64,000 bases of DNA, taken from positions 42,167-106,166 of the forward strand of contig CAZWKR010000010.1 in assembly GCA_964634215.1 (NCBI GenBank). Direction: 5' to 3'. A model generated the notes under the pieces. That model was not told the DNA's origin and did not search any database. It was given only the letters and a program-made list of their open reading frames with translations. The stretch's first letter is position 1. Each line of letters begins with the position of its first letter. Source of the stretch: an uncultured bacterium. Its GTDB lineage: Bacteria > Fidelibacterota > Marinisomatia > Marinisomatales > JAHJCW01. Positions 11,802 through 30,520 of the stretch are shown here, one piece after another. The position numbers were made by a program, and so were the translations under genes.

Positions 11802-11818
11802 TACTGATTTGTGGAGAA

Positions 11819-11974
11819 TTAATTGTTCTCGCATTTGTCGGTATCTCCACCACAAACTGAGCAAGATGCTTCACCACTACAAGTAGTGTTCAGTTCTTTA
11901 CCTCCTAGAAATGTGCCAATCCCTAAAATGAAAATGACAACTGCTATAGCAATAATTCCGACTAATAAATTCAT
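11819..11974 (-). CDS. nqrM: NqrM-like (Na+-NQR maturation) small membrane protein
   Basis: 51 aa, single N-terminal TM helix followed by four Cys (TCSGEASCSVCGGDTDKC); adjacent to apbE although on the opposite strand. Confidence 0.65.
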   Translation of the reverse strand: MNLLVGIIAIAVVIFILGIGTFLGGKELNTTCSGEASCSVCGGDTDKCENN

Positions 11975-12109
11975 GAATAAAATTACAAAGTATTTCAGGC
12001 AAAGTTCCACAAAATAGAAATGATTTTTATATAATAATTCTATTAAAAAGTGTAATTTATATCTTATATATTTTAGGAATTAATGATCAAAAATCTAACG
12101 GTATAATTA

Positions 12110-13543
12110 ATGAAAATATTTCGAATTAGCTTAATATCTATTATCATTTTTGCTGCAAATATTCTTTTAGCATCCGGAGGACATGATGCTCATTCTGTAC
12201 CGCATGTTGATGGAACGACTTTATCAATTTGGTGGACAATTCCATTTGCTGGTATTTTATTGTCAATTGCAGTAATGCCACTAGTCTTACCACACTTTTG
12301 GCATAATAACTTTGGTAAAGTATCATTTTTTTGGGCATTAACATTTATTATTCCATTCTTCATTGTGGAGGGTTATTCGATAACTCTTTATGAGTTTCTT
12401 CATATCATATTATTAGACTACGTTCCTTTCATAATACTATTACTTGCCCTATTTACGATTTCCGGTGGAATTCGATTAAAAGGTACATTGGTTGGTACAC
12501 CAATCTTAAATTCTATTATTATATTAACTGGTACAATATTAGCAAGTTGGATGGGGACAACAGGTGCAGCAATGCTTTTAATACGTCCGATAATCAGAGC
12601 TAATCAACACCGTGAACATAAAGTTCATGTAATTGTATTTTTCATTTTCTTGGTAGCTAATATTGGAGGATCTTTAACACCACTTGGTGATCCGCCACTG
12701 TTTCTAGGATTTTTAAAGGGAGTCGATTTCTTTTGGACTACATCTGCTATGTTCATGCCAATGTTATTTATGATTGTCACACTATTACTCATTTTCTTTT
12801 TGATTGATAGTAGGTATTATAATATGGAAGATCATTCCAAAAAACCAATTACCAATGAAAATGAAAAATTAGGAATTGAAGGTTCAATAAATTTTCTATT
12901 TTTACTCGGGGTGATCGCTGCCGTCTTAATGAGCGGAATTTGGAATCCACACACTTCATTCAATATTTATCATGTAGAATTAAAATTACCCAATTTAATG
13001 AGGGACATTTTATTGCTTTCATTAACGGTGTTAAGTTGGCAATTCACTTCTAAAACCCTTAGGAAGGCAAATCAGTTTACATGGTTTCCAATACAGGAAG
13101 TCGCAAAATTATTTGCGGGTATATTTATTACAATTATCCCCGCCATTGCGATATTACGGGCGGGCACCGATGGTGCTTTGTCCGCAATCATTAATTCAGT
13201 GTCATCAAACGGTGAACCGATAAATTATATGTATTTTTGGGCAACAGGAATTTTATCAAGTTTCTTGGATAATGCGCCAACATATTTAGTATTTTTCAAT
13301 ACAGCAGGTGGTAATGCTCAAGAACTGATGGGACCAATGCATAATACATTACTTGCCATTTCGGCGGGAGCTGTTTTTATGGGAGCCAATACTTACATAG
13401 GAAACGCTCCTAATTTTATGGTCAAATCAATTGCTGAAGAACAAAATATATCAATGCCAAGCTTTTTTGGATACATGCTTAAATACTCAATTCCAATTTT
13501 AATTCCACTATTTATCTTAGTAACATATATATTTTTCTTATGA
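12110..13543 (+). CDS. IT-superfamily secondary transporter (putative sodium:proton antiporter / CitMHS-like)
   Basis: Polytopic; GTTGAAMLLIRP, NIGGSLTPLGDPP, SSFLDNAPT, TYIGNAPNF motifs. Confidence 0.75.
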   Translation: MKIFRISLISIIIFAANILLASGGHDAHSVPHVDGTTLSIWWTIPFAGILLSIAVMPLVLPHFWHNNFGKVSFFWALTFIIPFFIVEGYSITLYEFLHIILLDYVPFIILLLALFTISGGIRLKGTLVGTPILNSIIILTGTILASWMGTTGAAMLLIRPIIRANQHREHKVHVIVFFIFLVANIGGSLTPLGDPPLFLGFLKGVDFFWTTSAMFMPMLFMIVTLLLIFFLIDSRYYNMEDHSKKPITNENEKLGIEGSINFLFLLGVIAAVLMSGIWNPHTSFNIYHVELKLPNLMRDILLLSLTVLSWQFTSKTLRKANQFTWFPIQEVAKLFAGIFITIIPAIAILRAGTDGALSAIINSVSSNGEPINYMYFWATGILSSFLDNAPTYLVFFNTAGGNAQELMGPMHNTLLAISAGAVFMGANTYIGNAPNFMVKSIAEEQNISMPSFFGYMLKYSIPILIPLFILVTYIFFL

Positions 13544-14082
13544 GAATTACTAAAGTAACAACTAAAGTTGGAGATAAGGGAACAACATCCATCGGAGATG
13601 GTACTAAAGTATCAAAATCTGATTTAAGGATATGTTGTATTGGTGAAGTTGATGAATTGAATTCATTTATTGGTCACGTAAAAATTATTGCACCTAATAA
13701 AATTTTCGTACAAGAATTGATCGGAATTCAAAATAATTTATTGAATTTGGGTGGTGAGTTATCAATTCCTGATAAAAACATAGAACTATTGAAAGAAGAT
13801 GCGATTTTTAAATTGGAAGCAAGTATCGACAAGATGAATAAAGAATTGCCTCCATTGAATGAATTTATTTTACCCGGAGGAGATGAGTTCTCTGCACGAT
13901 TACATGTTGTTCGTTCAATTTGTCGAAGAGTCGAAAGAAAATTGGTAAAACTTATTGAATCGGAAAATGGTCGCAATGTCTGGATAATATTTCTAAATCG
14001 ATTATCTGATTATTTGTTTGTTTTAGCTCGCTATTATACAATCAAAAATAATATTGATGAAAATCAATGGAGTAAACTTTAA
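13540..14082 (+). CDS. pduO: PduO-type ATP:cob(I)alamin adenosyltransferase
   Basis: TKVGDKGTT, GEVDELNS, FILPGG, RSICRRVER, LNRLSDYLF. Confidence 0.9.
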   Translation: MRITKVTTKVGDKGTTSIGDGTKVSKSDLRICCIGEVDELNSFIGHVKIIAPNKIFVQELIGIQNNLLNLGGELSIPDKNIELLKEDAIFKLEASIDKMNKELPPLNEFILPGGDEFSARLHVVRSICRRVERKLVKLIESENGRNVWIIFLNRLSDYLFVLARYYTIKNNIDENQWSKL

Positions 14083-14146
14083 TTAGGGAAATTCATAGAA
14101 TAATAATGGGTAATACCGTAATTTATACGTTTTGCAAAAGTGATAA

Positions 14147-15154
14147 ATGACTGATTGGAAAAAAATATATCAAGAAATTGAAAAAGCTGATTCGATCATG
14201 CTAACAACACATGAGAATCCAGATGGAGATGGTATCGGTTCTATTGTTGCATTGTATCAACATTTAATGCTAAAAAGTAAAAAATGTAGAATTTTACTTA
14301 CTTCCAAATTGCCTGAGGAGTTTCAATTTTTAGAACATAACGATAAATTTGAAGTCTTTGACGAGATAAAACATACGGAATGGTTAAGCAAAGTAGATCT
14401 ATCAATATTATTAGACATTGGTAACTATACAAGAACAGGCAGAATGTGGAATGTTATTCAGAAAAATGGAACTACTGTAGTGAATATTGATCATCATCCT
14501 TATCCAAACGGACATCCATTTACAATTAATATGTCAGATATAAATGCTTCTGCGACGGGTGAATTAATCTATAGTTATTTAAAAGCAATTGATCCTGATT
14601 CTTTGTCAAAAAAAGTGTATGAGGCAATATACGTAGCTATAATGACGGATACTGGTTCTTTTAGTTATAATAATACAAATGTTATATGTCATGAGATCGC
14701 CGCGAATGCGATAAAAGCTGGTGTGAATACTGCCAAGGTACATCAAAATATATATGGTTCGAGTTCTCGATCTAGAATTAAGTTATTAGCAGCCGTAGCT
14801 GACAAATTGCAATTCACTTATAATGATAAGTTGGTGTGGTTTACAATTACAAAGGAAATGATGACCAATGCTAACGCGGTAAAAGATGACGTAGACGGAT
14901 TTACAGATTTTGCCCGTTCAATAAAGGGCGTTGAAGTATCATTGATGGTTTTTGAAAATGACGACAATTCTTGCAGGATTAATTTCCGATCAAAAGGATA
15001 TTATTCTATTAATAAAATTGCTCAATATTTTGGAGGTGGTGGCCATGCATTTGCTGCGGGAGCTAAAGTTAGTGGAAAAATATCTAATGTAGCTTCCGAA
15101 GTAGTAGAAAAAACTATCAAAATAATTAAAGAACAAGAAGAGGTTACAGGTTGA
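14147..15154 (+). CDS. nrnA: DHH-family oligoribonuclease / pAp phosphatase
   Basis: HENPDGD, IDHH, TDTGSF, GGGGHAFAAG. Confidence 0.88.
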   Translation: MTDWKKIYQEIEKADSIMLTTHENPDGDGIGSIVALYQHLMLKSKKCRILLTSKLPEEFQFLEHNDKFEVFDEIKHTEWLSKVDLSILLDIGNYTRTGRMWNVIQKNGTTVVNIDHHPYPNGHPFTINMSDINASATGELIYSYLKAIDPDSLSKKVYEAIYVAIMTDTGSFSYNNTNVICHEIAANAIKAGVNTAKVHQNIYGSSSRSRIKLLAAVADKLQFTYNDKLVWFTITKEMMTNANAVKDDVDGFTDFARSIKGVEVSLMVFENDDNSCRINFRSKGYYSINKIAQYFGGGGHAFAAGAKVSGKISNVASEVVEKTIKIIKEQEEVTG

Positions 15155-16014
15155 AAATAATCGTTGCAAAAGATGCCGGTTATTGTTTTGGAGTTAGGAA
15201 TGCTGTCGATCAAGCATATAAAACCACCAAGGAGCACGGTGATGTATACATGTTAGGTCATATAGTACATAATGAGAACGTAGTTGAAGATTTGGAAAAA
15301 TCCGGCACCAAAGTAGTTGATTCACTAGATCAGGTACCTTCCAATAAACCACTCTTATTTAGAGCTCATGGTACCGAACCAAATATTTGGAAACAGGCTC
15401 ATAAAAAGAAATTAAATATAATTGATGCAACATGTCCGCTTGTGACAGAGATACATGAAGAAGTTCGCAGATTAGAGAAGGAAGGAAGACAGATAATTAT
15501 AATTGGAGACCATGGACATGATGAAATAGTCGGTATTTCAACTCAAGTAAAAAATCCAATAATAATATCTGATGCTAAAGAAGCCCAAAAATTAAAAAAA
15601 ATGAAACGTGTTGGTGTCGTTAGTCAATCAACACAAATGATAGAAAATATTCAAGATATAATAAGTGAATTGTTAACTAAAGTTAGTGATTTACACTTTG
15701 TAAATACCATTTGTTTTCCAACAAAACGTAATCATGCGCAAATTAAAAAATTAGCACAAACAGCCGATATATTGATTATCATTGGATCATTTACTAGCGC
15801 AAATTCAAAACGATTAACACAATTGGCATTAGAGAGAAACCCACAATCATATCAAGTTACGAATGTAAATGATATTCAAAATGAGTGGTTTACAAACGCA
15901 GGATTAGTTGGCATTTCAGCTGGTGCTTCAACACCTGACAATGTAATACAAGATGTAATTCAACATGTTAAAAAAATTGGTAATGTTATTAATGAGGAAA
16001 TAATTTATGAATAA
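15151..16014 (+). CDS. ispH: 4-hydroxy-3-methylbut-2-enyl diphosphate reductase
   Basis: [32 protein letters not shown] start overlapping the nrnA stop. Confidence 0.95.
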
Positions 16015-16888
16015 GGATTTATATAAAATTAAAGTAGGACTGGCAGAGATGCTTAAGGGCGGCGTGATTATGGATGTTACTAACTCTGAACAAGCCAAAA
16101 TTGCAGAAGATGCTGGAGCAGTTGCTGTTATGGCTTTGGAAAGAATACCAGCAGATATTCGTAAAGATGGTGGTATTGCTCGAATGAGTAATCCCGAAAT
16201 GATTAAGAATATTCAAGAAATAGTATCTATACCAGTTATGGCAAAGTGCAGGATTGGACATTTCGCTGAAGCGCAAATCCTGGAAGCACTTGAAGTAGAT
16301 TTTATTGACGAAAGTGAGGTTTTAACACCAGCTGATGAAAACAATCATATCTGGAAAAAAGATTTCAAAATTCCATTCGTTTGTGGCTGTCGTAATTTGG
16401 GTGAAGCACTGCGTAGAATTGGTGAGGGTGCGGCTATGATCCGAACTAAGGGTGAAGCAGGTAGTGGAAATATTGTTGAGGCTGTAAGGCATATGCGTAC
16501 AATTCAAGCTCAAATGAAAACATTAACTATAATGGATCATTCTGAATTGATGGCAACAGCCAAAGAATTTGGCGCACCATTTTCTCTAATTGAAGTTGTT
16601 GCAAAAACCGGAAAATTACCGGTACCAAATTTTGCTGCAGGTGGTATTGCTACTCCAGCTGATGCATCTTTAATGATGCAACTTGGTGCTGAATCGGTTT
16701 TTGTGGGATCTGGTATATTTATGAGTGACGATCCGGCTGACCGTGCCAAAGCAATTGTAGATGCTGTTACTTATTTTGATGATTCAAAGAAATTGTCAGA
16801 AATTTCAAGTGGATTAAAATCAGCGATGAAAGGGCTTGATATATCTGAAATTCCAGAGGGACAAAAACTTCAAGAACGAGGTTGGTAG
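16007..16888 (+). CDS. pdxS: Pyridoxal 5'-phosphate synthase lyase subunit
   Basis: [35 protein letters not shown]-terminal QERGW. Confidence 0.97.
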
Positions 16889-16889
16889 T

Positions 16890-17468
16890 TTGAAAATTGG
16901 TGTTTTAGCTCTTCAGGGTAATTACAAAATGCATAACCAAATATTGAAAAGTATAGGAATTGAACCTATACCAATTAGATATCCAAATGAATTGGACACC
17001 ATAGAAGGACTTGTAATTCCCGGTGGAGAATCAACAACAATGTCAAAATTAATGAAAAGGGTAGGTTTTTATAAACCGCTTAAATCATTTGCAAACGATT
17101 ATCCTGTTTTAGGGACTTGTGCTGGGTTAATTTTAATGTCTGAAAAGGTTATTGATGCCGAATTAAATTCACTTGGTATTTTAGATGTACAAGTTGAACG
17201 AAATGGGTACGGTAGACAAATACACTCGAATACAATAAATGTCGATATTGAATTGAATAATATTAATTATAGTCTTCCAGCATCGTTTATACGAGCACCA
17301 AAGATAGTTACTTATGGAAAATCTGTGAGTGTTTTAGCTGTAGATGGTGATGTCCCTATAATTGTGAGAAATGATAAACATCTGGGAATCTCATTTCATC
17401 CGGAATTAGATAATATTTCAATTTTACATGAATATGTTTTTATAAGCAGCAAGACGGACAATGAATAA
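16890..17468 (+). CDS. pdxT: PLP synthase glutaminase subunit
   Basis: GVLALQG, PGGESTT, GTCAG, FIRAP, FHPEL; TTG start at 16890 right after pdxS. Confidence 0.94.
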   Translation: MKIGVLALQGNYKMHNQILKSIGIEPIPIRYPNELDTIEGLVIPGGESTTMSKLMKRVGFYKPLKSFANDYPVLGTCAGLILMSEKVIDAELNSLGILDVQVERNGYGRQIHSNTINVDIELNNINYSLPASFIRAPKIVTYGKSVSVLAVDGDVPIIVRNDKHLGISFHPELDNISILHEYVFISSKTDNE

Positions 17469-19350
17469 TATGATGGGTAAAATATTAGAAAGGATAAGTT
17501 CACCAGCAGACCTAAAAGAATTATCAATTGATGATTTAAAAAAACTTGCTAAAGAAATTCGAAAATATACAATTACAACTGTAGAAAAGACCGGTGGTCA
17601 TTTAGCATCAACATTAGGGGCGGTAGAATTAACGATTGCATTGCATTATATATATAATACTCCTAAGGATAAACTAGTGTGGGACGTTGGACATCAGGGT
17701 TATGCACATAAAATTTTAACCGGCCGCAAGGAAAAATTAAATACCATTCGGCAATATGGTGGTTTGTGTGGTTTCCTTGCTCCGAGTGAAAGTGAATATG
17801 ATGCCTTTGGAGCCGGGCACGCGTCAACTTCCATCTCCGCCGCATTCGGAATTGCATCGGCACGAGACCATAATGATGAAAATTATAAAGTGGTCGCAAT
17901 TATTGGTGATGGTGCTATGACCGGAGGATTAGCATTTGAGGGTTTGAATAACGCAGGGAACTCTAAAAAACAATTACTGGTTATTCTTAATGACAATACT
18001 ATGTCAATTAGTCCAAATGTAGGTGCAATGAGGAGTTATCTTACAAAAGTTGTAACTAATCCTCTTTATAATCGAGTAAGAGATGAAATATGGAAAACAA
18101 CTAATTCTGTTCCGATTGGAAGACGAGTTACACGTAAAATGCTAAGAAAAATTGAGGAAAGTTTAAAATCACTAATGGCGCCCGGATTACTATTTGATGA
18201 ATTCGGTTTCCGATATTTTGGACCGATTGATGGTAATAATATGGAATTAATGGTAAGCACATTAGAAAATATTAAAGATATCAATACACCGGTTCTACTT
18301 CATATTGTGACGAAGAAAGGGAAGGGAATGCATTCAGCTGAGTCTGATCCGGTAACTTTTCACGGTGTATCTCCAAATGATAGAAAAAAGAAAAAACCTA
18401 CTGAAGAAAAGATTGAAGTACCATCATTTCAGAATGCATTTGGAGAGATCGCTTGCGAAATTAGTCGTAATCGCGATGATACAGTATGTATTACAGCAGC
18501 GATGAAAGAAGGAACGGGTTTAGTGTCTTTTGCTAAAGAATTTCCAGATCGGTTCTATGATGTTGGTATTGCAGAGGGTCATGCCGTAACATTTTCTGCA
18601 GGTATGGCTGTGCAAGGTGTGAGACCTATTGTAGCAATTTATTCAACGTTTTTACAACGGGCATATGACCACATAATTCATGATGTAGCATTACAAAATT
18701 TACCTGTAATCTTTTGTTTAGATCGTGCAGGGTTAGTTGGTGAAGATGGTGCAACACATCATGGTACACTTGATATTGCTTATTCAAGATGCATACCCAA
18801 TTTAATTGTATCTGCGCCAAAAGATGGTAATGAACTGCGTAATATTATGAATACAGCCCTCAATCAGAATACAAAACCATTTATGATAAGGTATCCTAGA
18901 TCGTCTTCATTTGTATTTGATAAAAATGGTCAATCAGATTTAATCCCAATCGGAAATTGGGAAAAGGTCGTATCAGGTAATGACATTGCAATTCTAGCTG
19001 TTGGATCAATGGTTAAACCATCTTTGGAAGCAGCCATTGATATGGCAAATGAAAATATTTCATGTGAAGTAATTAATTGTCGATTTATACAACCAATGGA
19101 TGAAGAATATTTAAAATCAGTAATTAAGAAATTTAATAAAATCGTTACAGTTGAAGAAGGTGTAATGAATGGTGGATTTGGAAGTGGCGTATCAGCATGG
19201 TTGACTGACAATAATTACACTGGATATATAAAAAGGATAGGTATTCCCAATGAATTTATAACTCATGGGAATAGAGATATTTTATTAAATGAAATCGGGT
19301 TGGATAAATCAGGAATTATTAATAAGGTTAAAGAATTTCTAAATGGTTGA
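17461..19350 (+). CDS. dxs: 1-deoxy-D-xylulose-5-phosphate synthase
   Basis: GGHLAS, WDVGHQ, GDGAMTGG, DVGIAE, DRAGLVGEDG. Confidence 0.96.
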   Translation: MNNMMGKILERISSPADLKELSIDDLKKLAKEIRKYTITTVEKTGGHLASTLGAVELTIALHYIYNTPKDKLVWDVGHQGYAHKILTGRKEKLNTIRQYGGLCGFLAPSESEYDAFGAGHASTSISAAFGIASARDHNDENYKVVAIIGDGAMTGGLAFEGLNNAGNSKKQLLVILNDNTMSISPNVGAMRSYLTKVVTNPLYNRVRDEIWKTTNSVPIGRRVTRKMLRKIEESLKSLMAPGLLFDEFGFRYFGPIDGNNMELMVSTLENIKDINTPVLLHIVTKKGKGMHSAESDPVTFHGVSPNDRKKKKPTEEKIEVPSFQNAFGEIACEISRNRDDTVCITAAMKEGTGLVSFAKEFPDRFYDVGIAEGHAVTFSAGMAVQGVRPIVAIYSTFLQRAYDHIIHDVALQNLPVIFCLDRAGLVGEDGATHHGTLDIAYSRCIPNLIVSAPKDGNELRNIMNTALNQNTKPFMIRYPRSSSFVFDKNGQSDLIPIGNWEKVVSGNDIAILAVGSMVKPSLEAAIDMANENISCEVINCRFIQPMDEEYLKSVIKKFNKIVTVEEGVMNGGFGSGVSAWLTDNNYTGYIKRIGIPNEFITHGNRDILLNEIGLDKSGIINKVKEFLNG

Positions 19351-19368
19351 TGATTGTAGGCAACAAAA

Positions 19369-21015
19369 GTGACTAATTATAAAAAGCAAAAAAACCAATG
19401 GGAATCAGATGTAGATAAGGCAAAAAAACGCAAATATGATTTCCGCACTGTTAGCGGTTTACCTGTTGATCTTTTTTATATGCCGGAGCCAGAATCTGAA
19501 GATTATGTAAATGAACTTGGTTTCCCCGGACAATATCCTTTTACACGTGGCGTTCACGCTAATATGTATAGAGGTAAATTGTGGACCATGCGCCAATTTG
19601 CCGGTTTTGGTACACCACAAGAAACAAATGAACGATACCACTTTTTACTATCTCAGGGGCAAACTGGTCTATCTGTAGCTTTCGACATGCCAACTTTAAT
19701 GGGTTATGATCCAGGTCATGATTTTGCACTGGGTGAAGTAGGTAAATGCGGAGTTAATGTTGCTTCCCTTAAAGATATGGAAATATTGTTTGATAATATT
19801 GATTTAGGTAAGATTTCAGTATCACAAACAATAAATGGCCCAGCTGTAATATTGTTAGCATTCTATATTGCCGTTGCTGACAATCAAAATGTATCTCAAA
19901 AACAATTACGCGGAACATTACAGAATGATATACTGAAAGAATTTATTGCACAAAAAGAATGGATATTTCCACCTGTGCAATCAATGCGAGTTATTACCGA
20001 TATGATGCAATATTGTGCTGAGCATATGCCACAGTACAATACAATTTCGATTTCTGGTTATCATATTCGAGAAGCCGGTTCTACTGCCGCACAAGAATTG
20101 GCATTTACTCTTGCTGACGGATTCGCATACGTTGAGCACGCTGTTGCCGCAGGAATGGATGTAGATAGATTTGCACCACGACTTTCATTCTTCTTTAATG
20201 CACATTTAGACTTTTTTGAGGAAATTGCTAAATACCGCGCAGCAAGACGAATCTGGGCTAAGCGAATGAAAAATAAATATAATGCAAAGAGTGAAAAATC
20301 CTGGAAGCTACGATTTCACACTCAGACCGCGGGTTGCTCATTAACTGCTCAACAACCGGAAATTAATATCGCCCGTACCGCATTTCAGGCACTGTCAGGA
20401 GTACTAGGCGGTACGCAATCTTTACATACAAATTCTATGGATGAAACGCTTGCCTTGCCTTCTGAAAAAGCCGCAGAAATTGCATTGAGAACTCAACAGT
20501 TAATTGCGTACGAAACCGGTGTTGCAAATGTAATTGATCCATTGGGTGGGTCGTGGTATATTGAATCATTAACCAATAAATTGGAAGAAGAAGCTGAATC
20601 GTATTTTGATCAAATAGATGAATTAGGCGGAGTAATTCCAGCAATAGAACTAGGGTTTTTCCAGCGGGAAATCGCCAAATCGGCATCTGAATACCAACAG
20701 TTAGTTGATGATAAAAGACGAATAGTAGTTGGTGTAAATGATTTCATTAAGGAAGATGAAAAAATTGATATACCAATTCTTGAAATCAGCAAAGATGCTG
20801 AGGAAAAACAATTAAAGGCTATTAATGATTTAAGGAAACATCGCAACAATGAAGAAGTGAAATTGGCTCTTGAGGAAGTTAGAAAGGCCTGTAAAGGTGA
20901 AGCAAATATTATGCCGCCAATTATTAATGCCGCTAAAACATATGCAACGCTAGGTGAAATTGTTGCTGCGATGAAAGACATATTTGGAGAATGGCAAGAG
21001 TCATCAATATTTTAA
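19369..21015 (+). CDS. icmA: AdoCbl-dependent acyl-CoA mutase large (substrate-binding) subunit, isobutyryl-CoA mutase type
   Basis: [44 protein letters not shown]; no C-terminal B12-binding domain; Phe/Gln at the specificity positions. Confidence 0.8.
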
Positions 21016-21049
21016 AGGTAATAATAACAATATCTTAAGGAGAAGGTAA

Positions 21050-22114
21050 ATGTCTCGTAAAATAGTACATGTTGTTGGAACAGGAACAATTGGAGAACCG
21101 TTAATTGGATTGTTAGCTGATTATCGTGACCAATTAGGAATTGATGAAGTTACATTTAATAAGAACTCAGCTGTTAAGGGTGATTATTCAAAAATAAATG
21201 GATTGCTTAGAAGAGGTGCTAGATTATCTGTTGATGAAAGTAAAGTAAAAGAATTTAAAGAATTAGGAATGGATGCTGATTTTGAAACTGAAGAAGCTAT
21301 AAAAAGAGCATCGGTCGTAATTGATTGTACACCTAGTGGTATTGGTCATAAAAACAAAGAAAAGTACTATCATAAATTCGCCGATTCAGTCAAAGGATTT
21401 CTGGCGCAAGGAAGTGAGCATGGATTTGGTAAACAGTATGCTCGCGGTATAAACGACAAAGCTCTTAGCTCTGAAGATCAGTTTATTCAAATTGTAAGCT
21501 GTAATACACATAACTTATCATGTATAGTCAATACGTTAGGACTAAATGGTAAAAATGATAATTTAAAGGAAGGTCGATTTGTATGTATTCGTCGTGCAAA
21601 CGATATTAGTCAGCCAAGTAAATTTATACCGGCACCTCAGGTAAATTCGCACTTAACAGACAAATACGGTTCACATCACGCACAAGATGCTGCAGAATTA
21701 TTTCAAACGATGGACGTTGATCTTAATCTATTTTCTTCAGCGATGAAGGTGAATAGTCAGTATATGCATGTTATCTGGTTTAATCTTAAAGTTGAAGAGC
21801 CGACTAAATTGGATGATGTTAAAGATCAATTAAATAAAAATCCGCTTGTGGCGATGACTCAAAAAGATATTACAAGTACGGTCTTTTCATTTGGTAGAGA
21901 TCAAGGACATTATGGAAGAATATTAAATCAGACCGTAGTTGTGGAACAAACTTTAACGGTACGTAATGATCATGAAATTTCCGGATTTTGCTTCACACCA
22001 CAAGATGGTAATTCTATCTTGAGTAGTATAGCCGCAACGGAATGGTTTTTGTATCCTCACTCTTATGAAGATAAAATAATGTGTTTGTCTAATCTATTCT
22101 TCGACTACATTTGA
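21050..22114 (+). CDS. Archaeal type II GAPDH-like NAD(P)-dependent oxidoreductase
   Basis: GTGTIG Rossmann, VIDCTPSGIG, AQGSE, VSCNTH (catalytic Cys), RRAND, SHHAQD, in the motif order of archaeal GAPDH; strong RBS AAGGAGAAGG. Confidence 0.75.
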   Translation: MSRKIVHVVGTGTIGEPLIGLLADYRDQLGIDEVTFNKNSAVKGDYSKINGLLRRGARLSVDESKVKEFKELGMDADFETEEAIKRASVVIDCTPSGIGHKNKEKYYHKFADSVKGFLAQGSEHGFGKQYARGINDKALSSEDQFIQIVSCNTHNLSCIVNTLGLNGKNDNLKEGRFVCIRRANDISQPSKFIPAPQVNSHLTDKYGSHHAQDAAELFQTMDVDLNLFSSAMKVNSQYMHVIWFNLKVEEPTKLDDVKDQLNKNPLVAMTQKDITSTVFSFGRDQGHYGRILNQTVVVEQTLTVRNDHEISGFCFTPQDGNSILSSIAATEWFLYPHSYEDKIMCLSNLFFDYI

Positions 22115-22743
22115 AAATTAATATTCATAAGATAACAGCCGGACCGTTTCAAGAAAACGGTTATATTGTCCACAACGAGAGTAACATGGATTGTATAATT
22201 ATTGATCCGGGTGATAGTCCCGAGCAGTACATAAAGGTAATTGAAAATAATACCTTAAAGCCAATTGGAATTCTGAATACGCATGGACATATTGATCATG
22301 TCCATGCGGTTCAAACGCTTAAAGAGCATTATTCCATTCCATTTTATATTCATAAAGAAGAGAAGATGATCATAGAGCATTACCCGCAAGGATGTTTAAT
22401 GTATGGAATGATTCCAAATGAAACACCTGTGGTTGATCATTGGCTAGTTAAGGAAAATACTATTTCTGTAGGTGGTTATACTTTAAAGTTAATTCATACG
22501 CCCGGACATACTCCTGGCGGTGTTTGTTACCAGTTAAATGGTGACATTTTCACAGGAGATACATTATTTAAAGGATCAATCGGGAGAACCGATCTTCCCG
22601 GGGGTGATTATAATACATTAATGGATTCTCTTAAATCATTAATAAAAAACGTTCCTGTGAATACGAAAGTTCATTCAGGACACGGTTATAGTACCACAAT
22701 TGAAAATGAGATACAATCTAATCCATTTTTGGTAAATTTATGA
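22111..22743 (+). CDS. MBL-fold metallo-hydrolase (glyoxalase II-like)
   Basis: THGHIDH, TPGHTPG, FTGDTLF, GRTDLPGG, HSGHG. Confidence 0.9.
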   Translation: MKINIHKITAGPFQENGYIVHNESNMDCIIIDPGDSPEQYIKVIENNTLKPIGILNTHGHIDHVHAVQTLKEHYSIPFYIHKEEKMIIEHYPQGCLMYGMIPNETPVVDHWLVKENTISVGGYTLKLIHTPGHTPGGVCYQLNGDIFTGDTLFKGSIGRTDLPGGDYNTLMDSLKSLIKNVPVNTKVHSGHGYSTTIENEIQSNPFLVNL

Positions 22744-22753
22744 TGATGGAAAA

Positions 22754-23701
22754 ATGAAAGTAACTGAACATTTTAAAAGATCAAAGAAAACATTATTTAG
22801 TTATGAGATAATTCCACCCAAACGTGGTAGGAGTATTGATAGCGTATTTGAGTTAATTGAACAGTTACTTCCCTATGAGCCACCATTTATTGATCTAACT
22901 AGTAGGTCTGCGGAGGTATATTATGAAGAGCTCGAAGATGGTGCGTTGCGAAGACATGCTAAACGAAAGCGACCTGGTACAATCGGGTTAAGCGCTGCTA
23001 TTAAAAATAGATATGATGTTGAAACAGTGCCCCATATCCTTTGTAAAGGTTTTACAAAGGAGGAAACTGAAGACGCTCTAATAGAATTAAATTTTTTAGG
23101 AATTAACAACATTTTGGCTGTGCAAGGTGATGAATTACGTCTAATGTCTCACAACAAAACGGGTAAGACACACAATTTTTTTGCATCAGATTTGGTAAAG
23201 CAAATTAGAGATATGAATTCTGGACAATATTTAGAGGAATTGACCGGAGCCTCGCCAACTGATTTTTGCATCGGTGTGGCAGGATACCCCGAAAAACATT
23301 TGGAAGCTCCGAATCTTGAAAGTGATTTAAAATATTTAAAACAAAAGGTTGATGCTGGAGCAGATTATATCGTAACGCAAATGGGTTTTGATAATAAAAA
23401 ATATTTTGATTTTGTCGATCATTGTAGAGCTGTCGGAATAAATATTCCGATAATACCTGGTATCAAGATAATTACTCGTGAAAATCACCTAAAAACGATT
23501 CCTAGAATTTTTCATATTGATATTCCCAAGGACCTCTCAGAAAAAATAGAAGGATTCTCGAAAGAAAAAATATACCAAGTTGGTGTAGATTGGTCTATTA
23601 AACAATGTAGAGAATTAATCGATGCTAAAGTTCCATGTATACATTTTTATATTATGAATACTGCACAAGAAGTAGCAGAAGTCGTTTCAACCATAAAATA
23701 A
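22754..23701 (+). CDS. metF: Methylenetetrahydrofolate reductase
   Basis: FSYEIIPPK, VPHILC, GVAGYPEKH, KVDAGADYIVTQ, IHFY. Confidence 0.92.
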   Translation: MKVTEHFKRSKKTLFSYEIIPPKRGRSIDSVFELIEQLLPYEPPFIDLTSRSAEVYYEELEDGALRRHAKRKRPGTIGLSAAIKNRYDVETVPHILCKGFTKEETEDALIELNFLGINNILAVQGDELRLMSHNKTGKTHNFFASDLVKQIRDMNSGQYLEELTGASPTDFCIGVAGYPEKHLEAPNLESDLKYLKQKVDAGADYIVTQMGFDNKKYFDFVDHCRAVGINIPIIPGIKIITRENHLKTIPRIFHIDIPKDLSEKIEGFSKEKIYQVGVDWSIKQCRELIDAKVPCIHFYIMNTAQEVAEVVSTIK

Positions 23702-23714
23702 ATTCCATTTAATT

Positions 23715-25091
23715 GTGACTCAAGACCGAGAATTAAAGTCTCGTATTATTAATCATTTAGTTGAATCAAATTTGATAAAACCAAATGATAAAATAATTGT
23801 AGCCGTGTCTGGTGGTATGGATTCAATGTTCCTACTTTCCATATTAATTGAATTGCAGAAAATATGGGATATTGATCTAGCAATCGGTCATATTAATCAC
23901 AATATACGTTTCAATTCATTAGCTGATGAAAATTTTGTTATTAAACAGGGTGAAAAACTAGATATCACGACAGTAGTAAAACGACTAAACTATAATGAAA
24001 AAAAATCGGGTGAAAGTACCGAAGCATGGGCAAGAAATAATCGTTATGCTCAACTTGAATTAATTAGAAAAGAACTCAATTATGATAAAATTGCTACGGG
24101 GCATCACAGTAATGATCAAATAGAAACCATATTACAGAGAATGAGTGAAAAATCGGGAATTGGTGGATTTAGAGGAATTCATAAGCAGCGCAGTAAAATA
24201 ATTCGTCCTGTATTAACGATATCAAAATCTGATATAGAAAAAGTTGCGAATGAGTTACAAATAAAACATGTGGATGATGAGACAAATAAAAATTTAGAGA
24301 TTCCAAGGAATTATTTTCGCCATCAAGTAATTCCACAATGGGAATCATTTTATCCCAATTTAGGTAATGCAATTCAATCTATTTGCGAGTCTGCAAATGA
24401 TAGCCAATTCGTAACTGACTATTTTACTGAAGAACTAGTGAGTAAAATTGTAACTGATGATAAGGACACATCATCCAATAAAATAATTAAAAGAATTAAG
24501 CTTGACGGTTTTGAAAAATTACCTGAGCTGGTAAAAGTATTGCTGATTAAACATATATTAGGAAAATATCCATGGCGAAAATATCAATGGAATGAGATTG
24601 CGCAAATATTAAAATCTGCTAAAATTGGAAAAGTATATAGTTTTGCTGATTTTGAAATATTAAAAGACAGACAAGAATGGTTAATTCGCCATAAATTAAA
24701 AGTTAACCTGAAGCCAATAAATATTCAATTAAATACAGCAGTACATTGTGGTGAATTTGTATTTAACATTAGAGAAGTAAATAAATATTCAATTATGGAT
24801 ACTCCGAATGTTGAAATTATCGACGGGATATCGATTGTTAACAAAAAATTAAAGCTTAGACTTTGGAGCGAGGGTGATATATTTCAACCGTTAGGTATGA
24901 TGGGGAATAAAAAGATAAGTGATTTTTTAACAGATGAAAAAGTCAATCAATTTGATAAGGAAAATCAGTTGGTTTTAACAGCTGACGACAACATAATTTG
25001 GTTGTGCGGTCGTAGAATAAGTGAAACTGTTAAAATTAATAAAGATACAAAGGATTATTTGGAACTTTCAATAATGACAAAAGTAGGTTGA
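23715..25091 (+). CDS. tilS: tRNA(Ile)-lysidine synthetase
   Basis: AVSGGMDS PP-loop, HINH, TGHHSNDQIET, C-terminal QPLGM..KKISD domain. Confidence 0.93.
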   Translation: MTQDRELKSRIINHLVESNLIKPNDKIIVAVSGGMDSMFLLSILIELQKIWDIDLAIGHINHNIRFNSLADENFVIKQGEKLDITTVVKRLNYNEKKSGESTEAWARNNRYAQLELIRKELNYDKIATGHHSNDQIETILQRMSEKSGIGGFRGIHKQRSKIIRPVLTISKSDIEKVANELQIKHVDDETNKNLEIPRNYFRHQVIPQWESFYPNLGNAIQSICESANDSQFVTDYFTEELVSKIVTDDKDTSSNKIIKRIKLDGFEKLPELVKVLLIKHILGKYPWRKYQWNEIAQILKSAKIGKVYSFADFEILKDRQEWLIRHKLKVNLKPINIQLNTAVHCGEFVFNIREVNKYSIMDTPNVEIIDGISIVNKKLKLRLWSEGDIFQPLGMMGNKKISDFLTDEKVNQFDKENQLVLTADDNIIWLCGRRISETVKINKDTKDYLELSIMTKVG

Positions 25092-25621
25092 ATATGATTA
25101 AATATGGATATAAAATGTCAACTTTAATTTCTGACGATAAAATACAGTCTAGAATTAAAGAAATAGCAGAGAATCTTTCAAATAAATTTGAAGATGAAAT
25201 TCCTATTCTAATTGGAGTGTTGAATGGAAGTTTTATTTTTATGTCTGATCTTATGCGTCAGATGACAATTGATTGTGAAATGGATTTTATTAAGTTGTCC
25301 TCATATGCAGGTAAAGAATCAGTTGGAACTGTCACTTTGCTAAAAGATATTTCAGCGAATATTACCGGAAGACATGTAATTATAGTTGAAGATATTATTG
25401 ATTCAGGCTTGACAATCAAATTTTTACGCGACCGTTTACAGGGCGCAAAACCAAAATCAGTCACTATTGTAACATTATTATTAAAACCGGAGATCGCAAA
25501 TTTAGATTTTAAAGTTGATTATGTTGGATTCGAAATTCCACCGGAATTTGTTGTGGGATATGGATTGGATTATAATCAAAAATTGCGTCATTTGCCGGAA
25601 ATTTATCGAATAGAAGAGTAA
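25088..25621 (+). CDS. hpt: Hypoxanthine phosphoribosyltransferase
   Basis: GVLNGS, IVEDIIDSGLT, FVVGYGLDY; start may be ATG 25094 or later. Confidence 0.95.
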   Translation: MNMIKYGYKMSTLISDDKIQSRIKEIAENLSNKFEDEIPILIGVLNGSFIFMSDLMRQMTIDCEMDFIKLSSYAGKESVGTVTLLKDISANITGRHVIIVEDIIDSGLTIKFLRDRLQGAKPKSVTIVTLLLKPEIANLDFKVDYVGFEIPPEFVVGYGLDYNQKLRHLPEIYRIEE

Positions 25622-25623
25622 TT

Positions 25624-27702
25624 ATGGCAACTAAAAATTCCAATACAAATTTGGACAAACCACAGAATAAAAAACCCGATACTTCTGGGAAGAAACCTAT
25701 TGATCCAAAATCCATTTTTCAATGGAAGAAAGCAGGAAAAACATCCCTAGTATGGCTATTAATCATTGTTGGAGCAATTATAATTTCTGGAATTTTTACA
25801 AACTCAAGTAAAAAAGAAATCGAAGTTGAATATTTTCAATATCAAGAATATTTGAAAAATGGTCAAATAGAAAAAGGAACCATTATTGAAAATATCTTTC
25901 ATGGTGAGTTTAAAATTCCTCAAGATATAAATACAAATTACGGTACGATTGAAAATGCAGAACGATTTTTCGTTTCATTGCCATTATTGGATCGCGAAAC
26001 AATGATAGAATGGGACAATTATAATTTAGAATATAACTTTAAAGAAAAAACTGCTGATTGGTCAAGTTATTTAATTAATATGCTACCATGGATCGTGCTA
26101 ATTGGATTTTGGATATTTATTATGCGTCGTATGCAAGGTGGTTCTGGTGGTGGTATGAAAAATGTATTCAATTTTGGAAAAAGTCGTGCTACAGCGATGA
26201 CTACTAATTTACCTAAAGTAACGTTTTCTGATGTTGCCGGATGTGTAGAAGCCAAAGAAGAATTGAATGAAATAATTGATTTTTTAAAACATCCTAAACG
26301 TCTTCAGAGATTAGGTGCTGAAATTCCAAAAGGGGTATTATTGTTAGGAGCACCCGGTACAGGTAAAACATTATTAGCCAGGGCTGTCGCTGGTGAAGCG
26401 GGAGTTCCATTTTTTAGTTTGAGTGGTGCGGATTTTGTAGAGATGTTTGTTGGTGTTGGAGCATCTCGTGTGAGAGATTTATTTGACCAAGGTAAAAAAC
26501 AGGCTCCCTGTATAATATTTATTGATGAATTGGACGCTGTGGGTCGTCAAAGGGGGGCAGGTTTAGGCGGTGGTCACGACGAAAGAGAGCAAACTCTCAA
26601 TGCATTATTAGTTGAATTAGACGGTTTTGAAAAGAATGCTAACGTAATTGTTATGGCGGCAACTAACCGTCCGGATGTGTTAGATAAAGCATTATTACGA
26701 CCAGGAAGATTTGATCGACAAGTTGTAGTTGACGTTCCTGACTATTTAGGTAGACTTGGGATACTCCGAGTTCACACAAAGAAAATAATTTTAAATAAAC
26801 GTAAAGTTGATTTAAAATCGCTTGCTAAAGGAACACCGGGCTTAGTTGGCGCTGATTTAGCAAATATAGTTAATGAAGCGGCACTATTAGCAGCACGGAA
26901 GAAAAAGAAAGCAGTCGATATGGATGATTTAGAGGACGCCAGAGACAAAGTCATGATGGGAGTCCAACGAAAAAGTGTAATTTTATCTGAAGAAGAGAAA
27001 AAATTAACAGCATATCATGAAGCAGGTCATGCTTTGGTTGCTTCAAAAATTGAGGGAGCCGATCCGGTACACAAAGTAACAATCATTCCACGTGGACAAG
27101 CTTTAGGATTAACAATGCAATTACCGCTTGATGAAAAACATGGATATTCTAAAAAGTATGTAGAAGGCCGCTTAACGATTTTACTAGGTGGCAGAGCTGC
27201 CGAAAGAAAGATTTTCAATGAACTTACTACTGGAGCTGGTAACGATATCGAACAAGCTACCGCAATTGCAAAAAAAATGGTATGTGAGTGGGGCATGAGC
27301 GATTTACTTGGTCCCATGACCTTTGGAAAACAGAATGAAGAAATTTTCCTTGGACGTGAAATTCAATCGCATCGCGATTATAGCGAAGCCACTGCAAGAA
27401 TGATTGATGAAGAATTAGTCAAGATTATTCGAACTGCACAAAAAAGAGCACGTACGATACTTGATGAACACGAGAAAATATTACATTTAATGGCAGAAGA
27501 ATTAATTAAACACGAAACGATTGATGAAGCTGATATGAGACGGATATTATCAGGTAAAAAAGTGTTTCGACGTAAAAATAATGAACAGCAAACAGCAAGC
27601 AAAACAAGTCCGACTGCGAGCAGAAAAATTAAAAAATCGGCGACACCAACAAAAAAACTAATAATAAAAAGTAAACCCAGGGTCAAAACTCCGTCTTCCT
27701 AA
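25624..27702 (+). CDS. ftsH: ATP-dependent zinc metalloprotease FtsH
   Basis: Two TM helices, Walker A GAPGTGKT, Walker B IFIDE, RPGRFDR, HEAGH. Confidence 0.97.
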
Positions 27703-27742
27703 TCTAAATTTAATGTAATTTGTAGGAGTATTATACTACACC

Positions 27743-28582
27743 ATGAAAATTGATAGTTTTAATACTTGGTTAAAGGATGATAACCGAAAAACATTGATTA
27801 TGGGTATTCTGAATGTCACACCTGATTCATTTAGTGATGGCGGACAGTTTAATAATTCTCAAAAAGCAGTTAATTATGCACTGAAGATGGAAGACGAGGG
27901 TGCAGATATTATCGATATTGGTGGAGAATCAACCCGACCGGGGGCAAAACCAGTTGCTATTGAAGAAGAATTAATTCGAGTGATTCCGGTTATAAGAGGT
28001 ATTAGAAAAAAATCAAATATTACTATTTCAATTGATACTTATAAATCAACTGTGGCTGATAAAGCAATTACCGCTGGAGCCAATGTTATTAATGATATAA
28101 GTGGATTGCGATTTGATAAGGACATGATTCAATTGGCGAATAAATTGCAAGTACCAATAATTATAATGCATATGTTAGGTAATCCTCAAAATATGCAGAA
28201 TGAACCTTTATATACTGATCTAATTGAAGAATTAATTTTATTTTTTGAGGAAAGAGTTGAAATAATTACGTCCAATGGAATTTTGAAAAATAAAATAATA
28301 CTAGATCCCGGCATTGGCTTTGGAAAAACGGTTAGTCATAATTTTACAATAATACGTGAGCTCAATCGAATTGCGGAATTAGGGTTTCCTATATTAGTTG
28401 GACCATCGCGTAAATCATTTATTGGGAATATGTTAAATTTACCATCTGAAGAAAGGATTGAGGGAACTGGCGCAGCTGTAACAGCTGCGATAATGAATGG
28501 TTCTCGTATAGTGCGCATCCATGATGTAAAAGAAATGTTGCGTGTCGTTAAGATAACTGAACAAATCTGTGGTATTACATAA
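27743..28582 (+). CDS. folP: Dihydropteroate synthase
   Basis: MGILNVTPDSFSDGG, GGESTRPG, DPGIGFGK, SRKSF. Confidence 0.96.
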   Translation: MKIDSFNTWLKDDNRKTLIMGILNVTPDSFSDGGQFNNSQKAVNYALKMEDEGADIIDIGGESTRPGAKPVAIEEELIRVIPVIRGIRKKSNITISIDTYKSTVADKAITAGANVINDISGLRFDKDMIQLANKLQVPIIIMHMLGNPQNMQNEPLYTDLIEELILFFEERVEIITSNGILKNKIILDPGIGFGKTVSHNFTIIRELNRIAELGFPILVGPSRKSFIGNMLNLPSEERIEGTGAAVTAAIMNGSRIVRIHDVKEMLRVVKITEQICGIT

Positions 28583-28664
28583 TATTTATGAGTTTGGAAT
28601 TACGATAATATTGGTGTAAAATAACAAATTAGAGAATAAATAATAAACTATAAGAATTATACAA

Positions 28665-29441
28665 ATGGAATTATTTAAAATAGGATTTTTAACAGTTACA
28701 ATTGTAGATATAATTGACTTATTGCTGGTAAGTTGGTTGTTCTACAAAGTATACCAATATTTTAAAGGTACTCGCGCCGGTCAAATGTTGGTTGGACTTA
28801 TAATTCTATTGATTGCATCATTTGTTTTTAATTCTTTTGGTTTTTCAGCAACATCCTGGTTAGTGAATCAATTTGAAACAGTTTGGGTTGTCGCATTTGT
28901 AATATTATTTCAACCTGAAATTCGCAGAATGCTTATATACATTGGACAAAACCGATTTTTTCGTTCAATATTTCGGGTTGATTCAGCAAAATCCATTGAA
29001 GCAATAGTTGATGCAACCAATCAAATAATTGATAGAGGATGGGGAGCATTAATCGTATTCCAAAGAGAGACTGGTCTCAGAATGTACAAGGAGGCTGGAA
29101 TGCCTCTAAGAGCTGAAGTAACAGCACCACTCGTCATCTCGATTTTTAATCCAACTTCACCCATGCATGATGGAGCGATAATTGTTCAGAATGAAATTAT
29201 TGAAGCTGCAGCATGCATTTTGCCACTCACCGAAAGTACAATGGTTGATCCAGAGATGGGCACAAGACATCGAGCGGCATTGGGTCTATCAGAAGAAACT
29301 GATGCGTTAATAGTGGTAATATCTGAGGAAACACATCGTATATCTGTCGCCGAAAACGGTCGTCTTATAAATCTAGGTCAAGATGAGATGGCATTACGGC
29401 GTTTCTTAAATGATCGCTTATTTATGTCATCCGGCGATTAA
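28665..29441 (+). CDS. cdaA: Diadenylate cyclase (CdaA/DacA)
   Basis: Three N-terminal TM helices, FQPEIRR, HDGA and RHRAA catalytic motifs. Confidence 0.92.
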   Translation: MELFKIGFLTVTIVDIIDLLLVSWLFYKVYQYFKGTRAGQMLVGLIILLIASFVFNSFGFSATSWLVNQFETVWVVAFVILFQPEIRRMLIYIGQNRFFRSIFRVDSAKSIEAIVDATNQIIDRGWGALIVFQRETGLRMYKEAGMPLRAEVTAPLVISIFNPTSPMHDGAIIVQNEIIEAAACILPLTESTMVDPEMGTRHRAALGLSEETDALIVVISEETHRISVAENGRLINLGQDEMALRRFLNDRLFMSSGD

Positions 29442-29496
29442 GTAAATCTAAAAAGTGAATGATTATTGCTGATGCTGTTTTAATTACAATAACAAA

Positions 29497-30501
29497 GTGA
29501 AAAAGTATCTAACAGTCTTTGTTTTGTTTTTCTCAATTTTGTTAAGTCAAGAAACAAGTTATGGAGATGCATTTTTAAATATTGGTGCTTCTTCTCGTTC
29601 TGTGGCTTTAGGAAGATCAGTTGTAGCTCTACCACAAAATGCTGGAGGATATTTAGTTAACCCTGCCGCAACAGCATTCTTGTCAAACAATACTATTACA
29701 GGTATGTATGTGAATCAATTTGAATTATCTGAGTATTACACTTTGGGTCTTTCTCATCCAACAAAAAATGGTTACCAGTGGGGCATATATGGTTTAAATT
29801 TCTCAGTAAACAATATATTTGAACGACCTGAAGTAATAAATATTGCAGACTTAGAAACCAGAAGAGATTCTATTAGATCTTTAGTGGCGCAAGGGTTTAA
29901 TTCATTTAGCACTCGCGAGTCAGCTTTAATAATTAACTTATCTAAAAATGCAAAATACAATCTTGATATCGGACGGGGATTGACTGAGATTCCGTTAAAA
30001 ATTCCCATTGGGATTAATATTAAATTATTACAGAAGGATTTTTATCAAGTTGATGGAACCGGAATTGGTGTTGATATGGGTGGGATGGTTTTAATAAACT
30101 TAGAACATATATTTATATATGAATGGTTAGACGAGTTTACCTTTGGTATGTCGCTAAACAATATAGTGAATACAAGAATGTATTGGAGCTCAGGGGAAAG
30201 AGAGGATATACCAATGCAATTAATTGCCGGTATAAGTTATACTCAAACATTTGATCATCTTCCAATAAAATATACGCTGTTACTACAGAAGAACTCATTA
30301 TATACTAGTGAGATGCAATATGGTGCTGAGTTAACGTTGTTTAATGTGGTAAATGTGCGAGGTGGTTTTAACTACGGCTATTTGCAAGGTGGAATTGGGT
30401 TGACATTTGGTAATATGAATTACTCCTTTGGTCTCGATTACAGTTTTTCAAATCATGACTTAGGAAATGCACATCGTATTGGTGGTACAATATATCTCTA
30501 A
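29497..30501 (+). CDS. PorV/PorQ-like outer-membrane beta-barrel protein
   Basis: Signal peptide, AFLNIGASSRSVALG...NPAA N-terminal signature, amphipathic strands, C-terminal HRIG. Confidence 0.6.
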   Translation: MKKYLTVFVLFFSILLSQETSYGDAFLNIGASSRSVALGRSVVALPQNAGGYLVNPAATAFLSNNTITGMYVNQFELSEYYTLGLSHPTKNGYQWGIYGLNFSVNNIFERPEVINIADLETRRDSIRSLVAQGFNSFSTRESALIINLSKNAKYNLDIGRGLTEIPLKIPIGINIKLLQKDFYQVDGTGIGVDMGGMVLINLEHIFIYEWLDEFTFGMSLNNIVNTRMYWSSGEREDIPMQLIAGISYTQTFDHLPIKYTLLLQKNSLYTSEMQYGAELTLFNVVNVRGGFNYGYLQGGIGLTFGNMNYSFGLDYSFSNHDLGNAHRIGGTIYL

Positions 30502-30520
30502 ATCTTATTAATTTTGGGTA

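Follow-up and report, generated by a model that had tools for sequence, protein, structure and literature searches.

Which reaction is catalysed by a bacterial protein that carries the motifs of archaeal glyceraldehyde-3-phosphate dehydrogenases (GAPDHs), in an operon devoid of glycolytic genes? The question is raised by an intact open reading frame of the window (the whole stretch of 64,000 nucleotides analysed here, from an uncultured member of the Fidelibacterota, also named Marinimicrobia), whose features are collected in Table 1. The initial annotation had described its 354-residue product as a class II (archaeal) GAPDH-like enzyme with an altered active site, belonging to a divergent subfamily and acting on a different aldehyde, acyl-phosphate or acyl-CoA.

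Gene and local setting

All the motifs cited for the class II affinity are present in the translation (GTGTIG at residues 10-15, VIDCTPSGIG at 90-99, QGSE at 120-123, VSCNTH at 149-154, RRAND at 181-185 and SHHAQD at 208-213), as is the strong ribosome-binding site noted ahead of the ATG. Pfam and TIGR profile matches confirm the position between an acyl-CoA mutase and an MBL hydrolase: the upstream gene encodes a large subunit of the methylmalonyl-CoA-mutase family (PF01642, TIGR00641) and stops at 21015, leaving a gap of 34 nt, and the downstream MBL-fold gene (PF00753), which overlaps the GAPDH-like frame by 4 nt, is followed by an MTHFR gene. The reported absence of pgk and tpi nearby also holds, the host pgk being found on a separate contig, beside a gene that we take to be tpi from its sequence.

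Table 1. Features of the GAPDH-like gene and its two neighbours (positions in the window)
Feature	Positions	Strand	Basis
Class II-like GAPDH of the SCNTH clade, 354 aa	21050..22114	+	profile, PDB sequence, model and fold comparisons
Shine-Dalgarno-like AAGGAG, 7 nt 5' of ATG	21037..21042	+	sequence
GTGTIG, Rossmann motif, residues 10-15	21077..21094	+	translation and family alignment
Lys38, aligned to Lys32 of canonical class II (NADP-type position)	21161..21163	+	alignments; role of the Lys from an excerpt of PMC12041015
Catalytic loop S150-C151-N152-T153-H154, equivalent to S139-C140-N141-T142-T143 of 1CF2	21497..21511	+	alignments
R181-R182-x-x-D185, equivalent to R167/R168, phosphate sites	21590..21604	+	invariant in 93/93 aligned family members
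H209-H210, equivalent to H193/H194, phosphate site	21674..21679	+	alignments
H240, equivalent to catalytic base H219	21767..21769	+	invariant in 93/93 aligned family members
Upstream acyl-CoA mutase large subunit; a neighbour, partnership not conserved	19369..21015	+	profile matches, neighbour counts
Downstream MBL-fold hydrolase, glyoxalase II-like, below GloB cut-offs	22111..22743	+	profile matches; frequent neighbour within the phylum

The operon labels ispH, pdxS, pdxT, dxs, tilS, hpt, ftsH, folP, cdaA and ccm used here are presumptive, having been recognised from the sequences. On this basis, ispH, pdxS, pdxT and dxs lie upstream in the same gene run (15151-19350), with dxs and pdxS 1.7-5 kb ahead of the GAPDH-like gene. 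PdxS and DXS both consume glyceraldehyde-3-phosphate (G3P), and their proximity is weakly consistent with a GAPDH function. A promoter and terminator scan over positions 11500-31000 stayed at chance level (86 against 92 expected, and 11 against 8.6 expected, respectively). The gene is found in 105 of the 151 sampled genomes of the phylum, including 42/42 genomes of the same order, among which is the host. Recent transfer into the host genome was considered and rejected, given this presence throughout the order and a base composition (GC 0.346, GC3 0.225) similar to that of the genome (0.343) and of the neighbouring genes.

Family membership and fold

The class II affinity is far above chance, with E-values of 2.7e-32 for the NF003251 profile and 1.7e-18 for the sequence of PDB entry 1CF2, and the four top PDB sequence matches are all archaeal GAPDHs. 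The best family profiles are those of type II GAPDH, both matched below their cut-offs (112 against 185 bits for NF003251, 85 against 233 for TIGR01546), as is also the case for four relatives. Among the class I and erythrose-4-phosphate dehydrogenase (E4PDH) profiles, Gp_dh_N gave no match and Gp_dh_C reached 19.9 bits for a cut-off of 24.4, and the ASADH models reached 13 bits for cut-offs of 223-324. The SCTTNC loop and His176-type base that mark class I and E4PDH enzymes are likewise missing from the protein. In an AlphaFold2 model built from an alignment of 93 sequences (pLDDT 97), the same affinity is recovered: archaeal GAPDHs occupy the first six Foldseek rows, led by 1CF2, 2YYY, 1B7G and 2CZC (TMq 0.80-0.82), class I and E4PDH structures scoring lower (0.57-0.65), and VIA-align gives a Z of 38.7 with 2CZC (rmsd 2.0, 323 residues aligned), compared with 26.2 for class I GAPDH, 26.2 for an ASADH-like protein and 25.4 for malonyl-CoA reductase. 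The modelled fold is that of class II (archaeal) GAPDH.

Compared with 32 canonical class II proteins, it nevertheless shows 20-26% identity, against 39-93% among those canonical proteins. In a FastTree phylogeny of 131 rows, a long branch (support 90 and 99) separates 101 family rows from 24 canonical rows, a split also found in an IQ-TREE quick tree of 85 rows; these trees left out 11 near-identical family rows and 13 canonical rows, their canonical sample consists of Thermoplasmatota and five plasmid genes only, and the long branches meet at the root, as a tool warning indicated. Judged from sequence, this clade, designated here by its SCNTH loop, is the sister of canonical class II GAPDH, and a member of it neither by HMM cut-offs nor by tree, so that the divergent subfamily initially proposed is well founded. 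In the ESM Atlas, the three nearest clusters are unnamed or putative, and type II GAPDH clusters come after them; homologues at 72-78% identity are named Marinimicrobia or Fidelibacterota by their sources. A search of titles and abstract openings, with most subscription papers beyond its reach, returned no paper describing the SCNTH clade.

Active site and cofactor position

The residues listed for 1CF2 in the portion of PMC12041015 available are Cys140, the base His219, Ser139, Asn141, Thr142, Arg167, Arg168, His193 and His194, and their positions are occupied in the protein by S150, C151, N152, T153, R181, R182, H209, H210 and H240. Every listed catalytic and phosphate-binding residue is therefore kept, which leaves the idea of an altered active site unsupported. 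The difference between SCNTH and the usual SCNTT is real, but His154 sits at the position of Thr143 (Cys+3), and the conserved Thr142 is retained as Thr153; Thr143 is not among the residues listed for 1CF2, and class I enzymes have Asn at Cys+3. His154 is a signature of the clade, present in 58/60 representatives, 18/21 genome-derived rows, 72/72 viral rows and 19/19 archaeal rows (these last extracted using the motif itself, yet each of the 19 loci yielded one), and replaced by Thr in 37/37 canonical class II rows. Two other near-invariant features of the clade, G-R at 289-290 and TPQDGN at 316-321, are also without canonical class II counterpart. Over the family alignment, Cys151 is kept in 171 of 172 rows, and His240, Arg181 and Arg182 in all 172.

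By homology with 1CF2, His240 would activate Cys151, on which the thioester would form; the substrate phosphate would be held by Arg181/Arg182, inorganic phosphate by Ser150, Asn152, Arg181, His209 and His210, and the 2'-phosphate of NADP would be contacted by Lys38. A Lys at position 32 is tied to NADP use in class II enzymes (PMC12041015, in the excerpt available), and Lys38 pairs with it in MAFFT and profile-profile alignments. The NADP preference is nevertheless a prediction, because the canonical K-T-R-P loop reads K-N-S-A in the protein, the Lys alone being kept with T-R replaced by N-S, and because a larger alignment is gapped at that stretch. One family of orthologues, f23 (L065-L068, L073, L074), has eroded motifs, with no Lys38, an altered QGSE, a SCNA- loop and, in most members, Tyr in place of His209; their cofactor or function has possibly changed, in genomes that retain class I.

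Genomes in which no other GAPDH was found

In a streamlined genus with genomes of 0.8-1.1 Mb, the gene is found in 9/9 genomes and class I in 0/9. In all five of those tested further, one of which is a single contig, the gene is the only credible Gp_dh_C match, aside from one match of 37 positions (E 0.049) in G031. The same five genomes encode PGK, TIM, enolase and a class I aldolase, the last of which fills the aldolase step (class II aldolase in 1/5, DeoC-type in 0/5). Another example is given by the Thermoplasmatota, where, out of 111 genomes, 65 have a canonical class II gene, 36 a gene of the SCNTH clade, 1 both and 11 neither, with class I in 10 of these 11. The 36 carriers comprise 10 with class I, 1 with canonical class II and 25 with no other GAPDH found, and all have a PGK match, reduced in one case to a 21-residue fragment at a contig end. 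As the sampled genomes are incomplete MAGs and related genomes are not independent, no statistic is attached to the Thermoplasmatota and streamlined counts.

The situation is different in the Actinomycetota class of G152, tentatively named Acidimicrobiia with Actinomarina, where the gene is found in 26 of 61 genomes and all 26 carriers, including 13 of about 1 Mb, also have class I; without G152, which is unpublished and on which P0122, L042, L075 and L080 depend, these counts become 25 of 60 and 25/25. Some occurrences call for caution. The copies on two contigs titled Bacteroidia (L011) and Winogradskyella (L019) resemble those of Marinimicrobia (92% and 74% identity), as do the genes downstream of them, and these contigs are probably mis-binned; the orthologue of G051 (C14:143966-145021) has three in-frame TGA codons, which may reflect assembly error or recoding.

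The co-resident class I genes

In the host genome (G000, completeness 92.6%), a class I gap scores above the TIGR01534 cut-off, and the check for such a gene suggested by the initial annotation thus establishes that the class II-like gene is not the sole host GAPDH. Ahead of this class I gene lies a class I paralogue whose catalytic Cys is missing; downstream, one gene further on, come a PPi-dependent PFK and an aldolase. In 13/13 pairs examined, which span Marinimicrobia, Actinomycetota and two other bacterial lineages (L007:7544-9561, which is contig C9 of the host, L320-L328, L075, L076 and L078), a Cys-less paralogue immediately precedes a canonical class I gap, and five unpaired class I copies from other families retain the Cys. 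In the class of G152, the tandem pair is found in 26/26 carriers of the SCNTH gene versus 0/35 non-carriers. The paralogue is a candidate regulatory pseudoenzyme subunit. Three GAPDH-family genes in genomes of 1 Mb imply distinct jobs, which could be those of an NAD-type class I enzyme with its regulatory pseudoenzyme, and of an NADP-type anabolic enzyme.

Glycolytic neighbours and proposed function

Among the 36 archaeal carriers, 9 have pgk on the same strand, 60-75 nt ahead of the gene, and these 9 all lack class I; tpi is within about 1 kb in 2/19 archaeal loci. In the actinobacterial carriers, ppdk is head-to-head with the gene, 40-75 bp apart, in 12 of the 13 genomes of about 1 Mb and in none of the 13 larger ones. 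As the carriers that share the pgk arrangement are close kin, and likewise those that share the ppdk arrangement, each of the two may go back to a single ancestral event. The archaeal PGKs encoded upstream of the gene are short (358-384 aa; L116:5898-6971, L117:3730-4881), and several match Pfam in two pieces, which suggests an internal deletion in their sequences. In G067 (C1:10665-13324; L319), ppdk is split, and an aldolase gene contains one in-frame TGA.

Since members of the clade take the place of an otherwise absent GAPDH in PGK-containing genomes, and adjoin pgk, tpi or ppdk, a GAPDH function is the natural reading. The explanation favoured here, with moderate confidence, is that of a dehydrogenase of class II fold, its GAPDH active site complete, which would interconvert 1,3-bisphosphoglycerate and G3P, likely with NADP(H), and serve gluconeogenesis beside an NAD-type class I enzyme. 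The parts of this reading are not equally firm: G3P is probably the substrate, any other being distinctly unlikely, and the cofactor and direction are put forward with the same moderate confidence as the whole. In the host, an NADP-linked gluconeogenic isoenzyme is predicted as likely because a class I gap coexists with the gene. The PPDK and PPi-dependent PFK of the host, in which no pyruvate kinase was found, also speak for this reading. Several observations weigh against the favoured explanation. No enzyme assay of a clade member was found in the literature searched, and a canonical class II protein from the bacterium Pseudoclostridium was inactive in one assay (PMC6543838, 2019, in the part available). 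Most carriers keep class I (the host, the 26 actinobacterial carriers and 10/36 archaea, in which class I often adjoins pgk), so that redundancy needs explaining. To these are added the kinship behind the pgk and ppdk neighbourhoods with the separation of ppdk in 13/13 larger carriers, the K-N-S-A cofactor loop, the incompleteness of the MAGs, and the phage copies described below.

Phage copies and the direction of the reaction

A viral scan with a single query sequence gave no match, and an alignment-based scan of IMG/VR confirmed 84 stretches, of which 80 loci were kept (L237-L316). The 72 full-length copies (58 distinct) keep C151, R181, R182, H209, H210, H240 and K38 without exception. In 38 cluster representatives, the neighbours include PhoH, a trypsin-like protease, a nuclease, ribonucleotide reductase, primase and DNA polymerase III alpha; across the 80 loci, the commonest are the protease, PhoH and the nuclease, with no recurring pathway gene. 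A conserved block made of a small ORF, an antisense trypsin-like protease, PIN-PhoH and a PD-(D/E)XK nuclease is frequent. Of 30 viral records selected, 29 were searched; terminase was found in 9 of these, including all five complete genomes of 177-284 kb (G267, G279, G285, G286 and G289), and PGK in 0/29. In the IQ-TREE quick tree, a single supported clade gathers 21 of the 27 viral rows, and another row is placed within the Marinimicrobia. The phage copies gave no PHROG match, and GenBank phages just one weak match (22%), in an unannotated record of 4 kb.

Ribonucleotide reductase was matched in the five complete phage genomes, and PGK in none of them. Could the enzyme then be a true GAPDH without being an anabolic specialist? 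It would in that case be bidirectional, NAD-preferring, or oxidative for NADPH, this last being the likely use in phages, as reductant for dNTP. Besides these phage genomes, the retention of Lys38 alone in the cofactor loop speaks for such an enzyme, as do the zwf and gnd motifs missing from the host in a crude motif scan, a weak test that did find PEP carboxykinase and PntB. On the other side, pyruvate kinase was not found in 3/3 Marinimicrobia tested; the genomes in which ppdk is head-to-head with the gene contain pyruvate kinase and class I gap as well; and for archaeal class II enzymes a gluconeogenic role is described (PMC12525153, in an excerpt). A non-anabolic GAPDH is thus considered unlikely, though a serious contender, and the phage gene may supply NADPH for dNTP synthesis.

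Other substrates and the mutase neighbourhood

If the main substrate were another phosphorylated aldehyde or acyl-phosphate, similar to erythrose-4-phosphate, with a GAPDH side function sufficing in some genomes, the near-invariant His154, G-R and TPQDGN specific to the clade, the retention of the gene beside class I in tiny genomes and its wide carriage by phages could be understood. Such a substrate is improbable in view of the near-complete exclusion between the clade and canonical class II in Thermoplasmatota (both in 1/111), of the pgk, tpi and ppdk neighbours, and of the 80 viral loci with their lack of a recurring pathway gene.

The different aldehyde or acyl-CoA substrate proposed by the initial annotation would suit an acyl-CoA reductase or aldehyde dehydrogenase partnering the acyl-CoA mutase and the MBL hydrolase, and enzymes that acylate CoA do occur in the GAPDH superfamily (PMC12041015, same excerpt). 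Beyond the window, a mutase gene within 350 bp is seen in 8/41 genome loci and 11/80 metagenome loci, and in 0/12 phylum-wide picks, 0/19 archaeal and 0/80 viral loci, i.e., in 19/232 loci overall, the two scanned locus sets being biased towards close relatives. The corresponding counts for an MBL gene are 25/41, 38/80, 11/12, 3/19 and 0/80. Other genes often lie between mutase and GAPDH-like gene, such as a cluster that we take from its sequence to be ccmE-F-A-B-C, found there in many relatives (L017, L020-L026, L063, L071) and absent there in the window. These adjacency counts reject a mutase-linked pathway, and the operon position is best explained by an old housekeeping operon, whose stable context in the phylum is gene-(MBL)-(metF)-tilS-hpt-ftsH-folP. 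With both phosphate sites intact, a Z for malonyl-CoA reductase far below that of 2CZC, and relatives that replace a missing GAPDH, such a mutase-linked reductase or dehydrogenase is very improbable. As for the MBL-fold hydrolases, they adjoin the gene downstream in Marinimicrobia and divergently in some archaea (L109:4499-5137, L110:4318-4998, L113:4219-4866), the proteins of the two groups being only 29% identical, and a link to methylglyoxal detoxification is possible. Finally, a non-catalytic or moonlighting protein with a structural or regulatory role, to which the eroded motifs of f23 could point, is scarcely credible given the conservation of Cys151, His240, Arg181 and Arg182 across the family.

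Comparison with known systems

The protein shares with archaeal class II phosphorylating GAPDH, which we take to be EC 1.2.1.59 (NF003251, TIGR01546; PDB 1CF2, 1B7G, 2YYY, 2CZC), its modelled fold, catalytic Cys, His219-type base, both phosphate sites and, in the MAFFT and profile-profile alignments, the Lys of the NADP-type loop, which is followed by N-S in place of T-R. It differs by its low identity, its scores below both HMM cut-offs, its separate clade, the His at Cys+3, the AQGSExGFG, GRIL and TPQDGN signatures, and a range that is mostly bacterial and viral. Class II enzymes also occur in bacteria as plasmid-borne canonical genes (e.g., WP_027888532.1, annotated as type II GAPDH), one of which adjoins pfkA and another an aldolase; unlike the protein studied here, these belong within the canonical clade, their loop is the usual SCNTT and their cofactor position is taken by Asp, and they are sporadic, whereas the SCNTH gene is a core chromosomal gene. 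Archaeal malonyl-CoA reductase, ASADH and E4PDH have in common with it the superfamily fold and catalytic Cys, but they are more distant, with 11-17% identity, a Z of 25-26 and, for E4PDH, a TMq of 0.62-0.65, and their active-site residues differ.

Systems with two GAPDHs are known, such as GapA/GapB in Bacillus, and class I plus class II in Haloferax volcanii. The genomes considered here would follow the same principle, by which a genome combines an NAD-type isoenzyme with a putative NADP-type one (stated in the parts available of PMC6543838 and PMC12525153), with the difference that the second enzyme comes from an unstudied clade and that a Cys-less paralogue stands ahead of the class I gene. 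A highly expressed GAPDH has been reported in Thermoprofundales, its class not being given in the excerpt available (PMC6461988).

Implications

The chemistry of the SCNTH enzymes is probably ordinary. A broader view, speculative and on the doubtful side, is that they form a third, unnamed GAPDH class, dedicated to NADP-linked gluconeogenesis in Marinimicrobia, streamlined marine actinobacteria and several archaeal lineages, where, in a three-gene system, class I would be throttled by its Cys-less pseudoenzyme subunit, and repeatedly captured by large aquatic phages in order to provide NADPH for nucleotide synthesis. That large phage genomes carry intact copies suggests an auxiliary metabolic gene that has been overlooked. 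In 2019, the authors of PMC6543838 stated, in the part available, that they were aware of no functional evidence for class II GAPDH in bacteria, and a core gene of this kind makes such a function directly testable. As these proteins fall below Pfam and NCBIfam cut-offs, and are often labelled hypothetical, a false gap between PGK and TIM would result in metabolic reconstructions of abundant marine bacteria and of some archaea.
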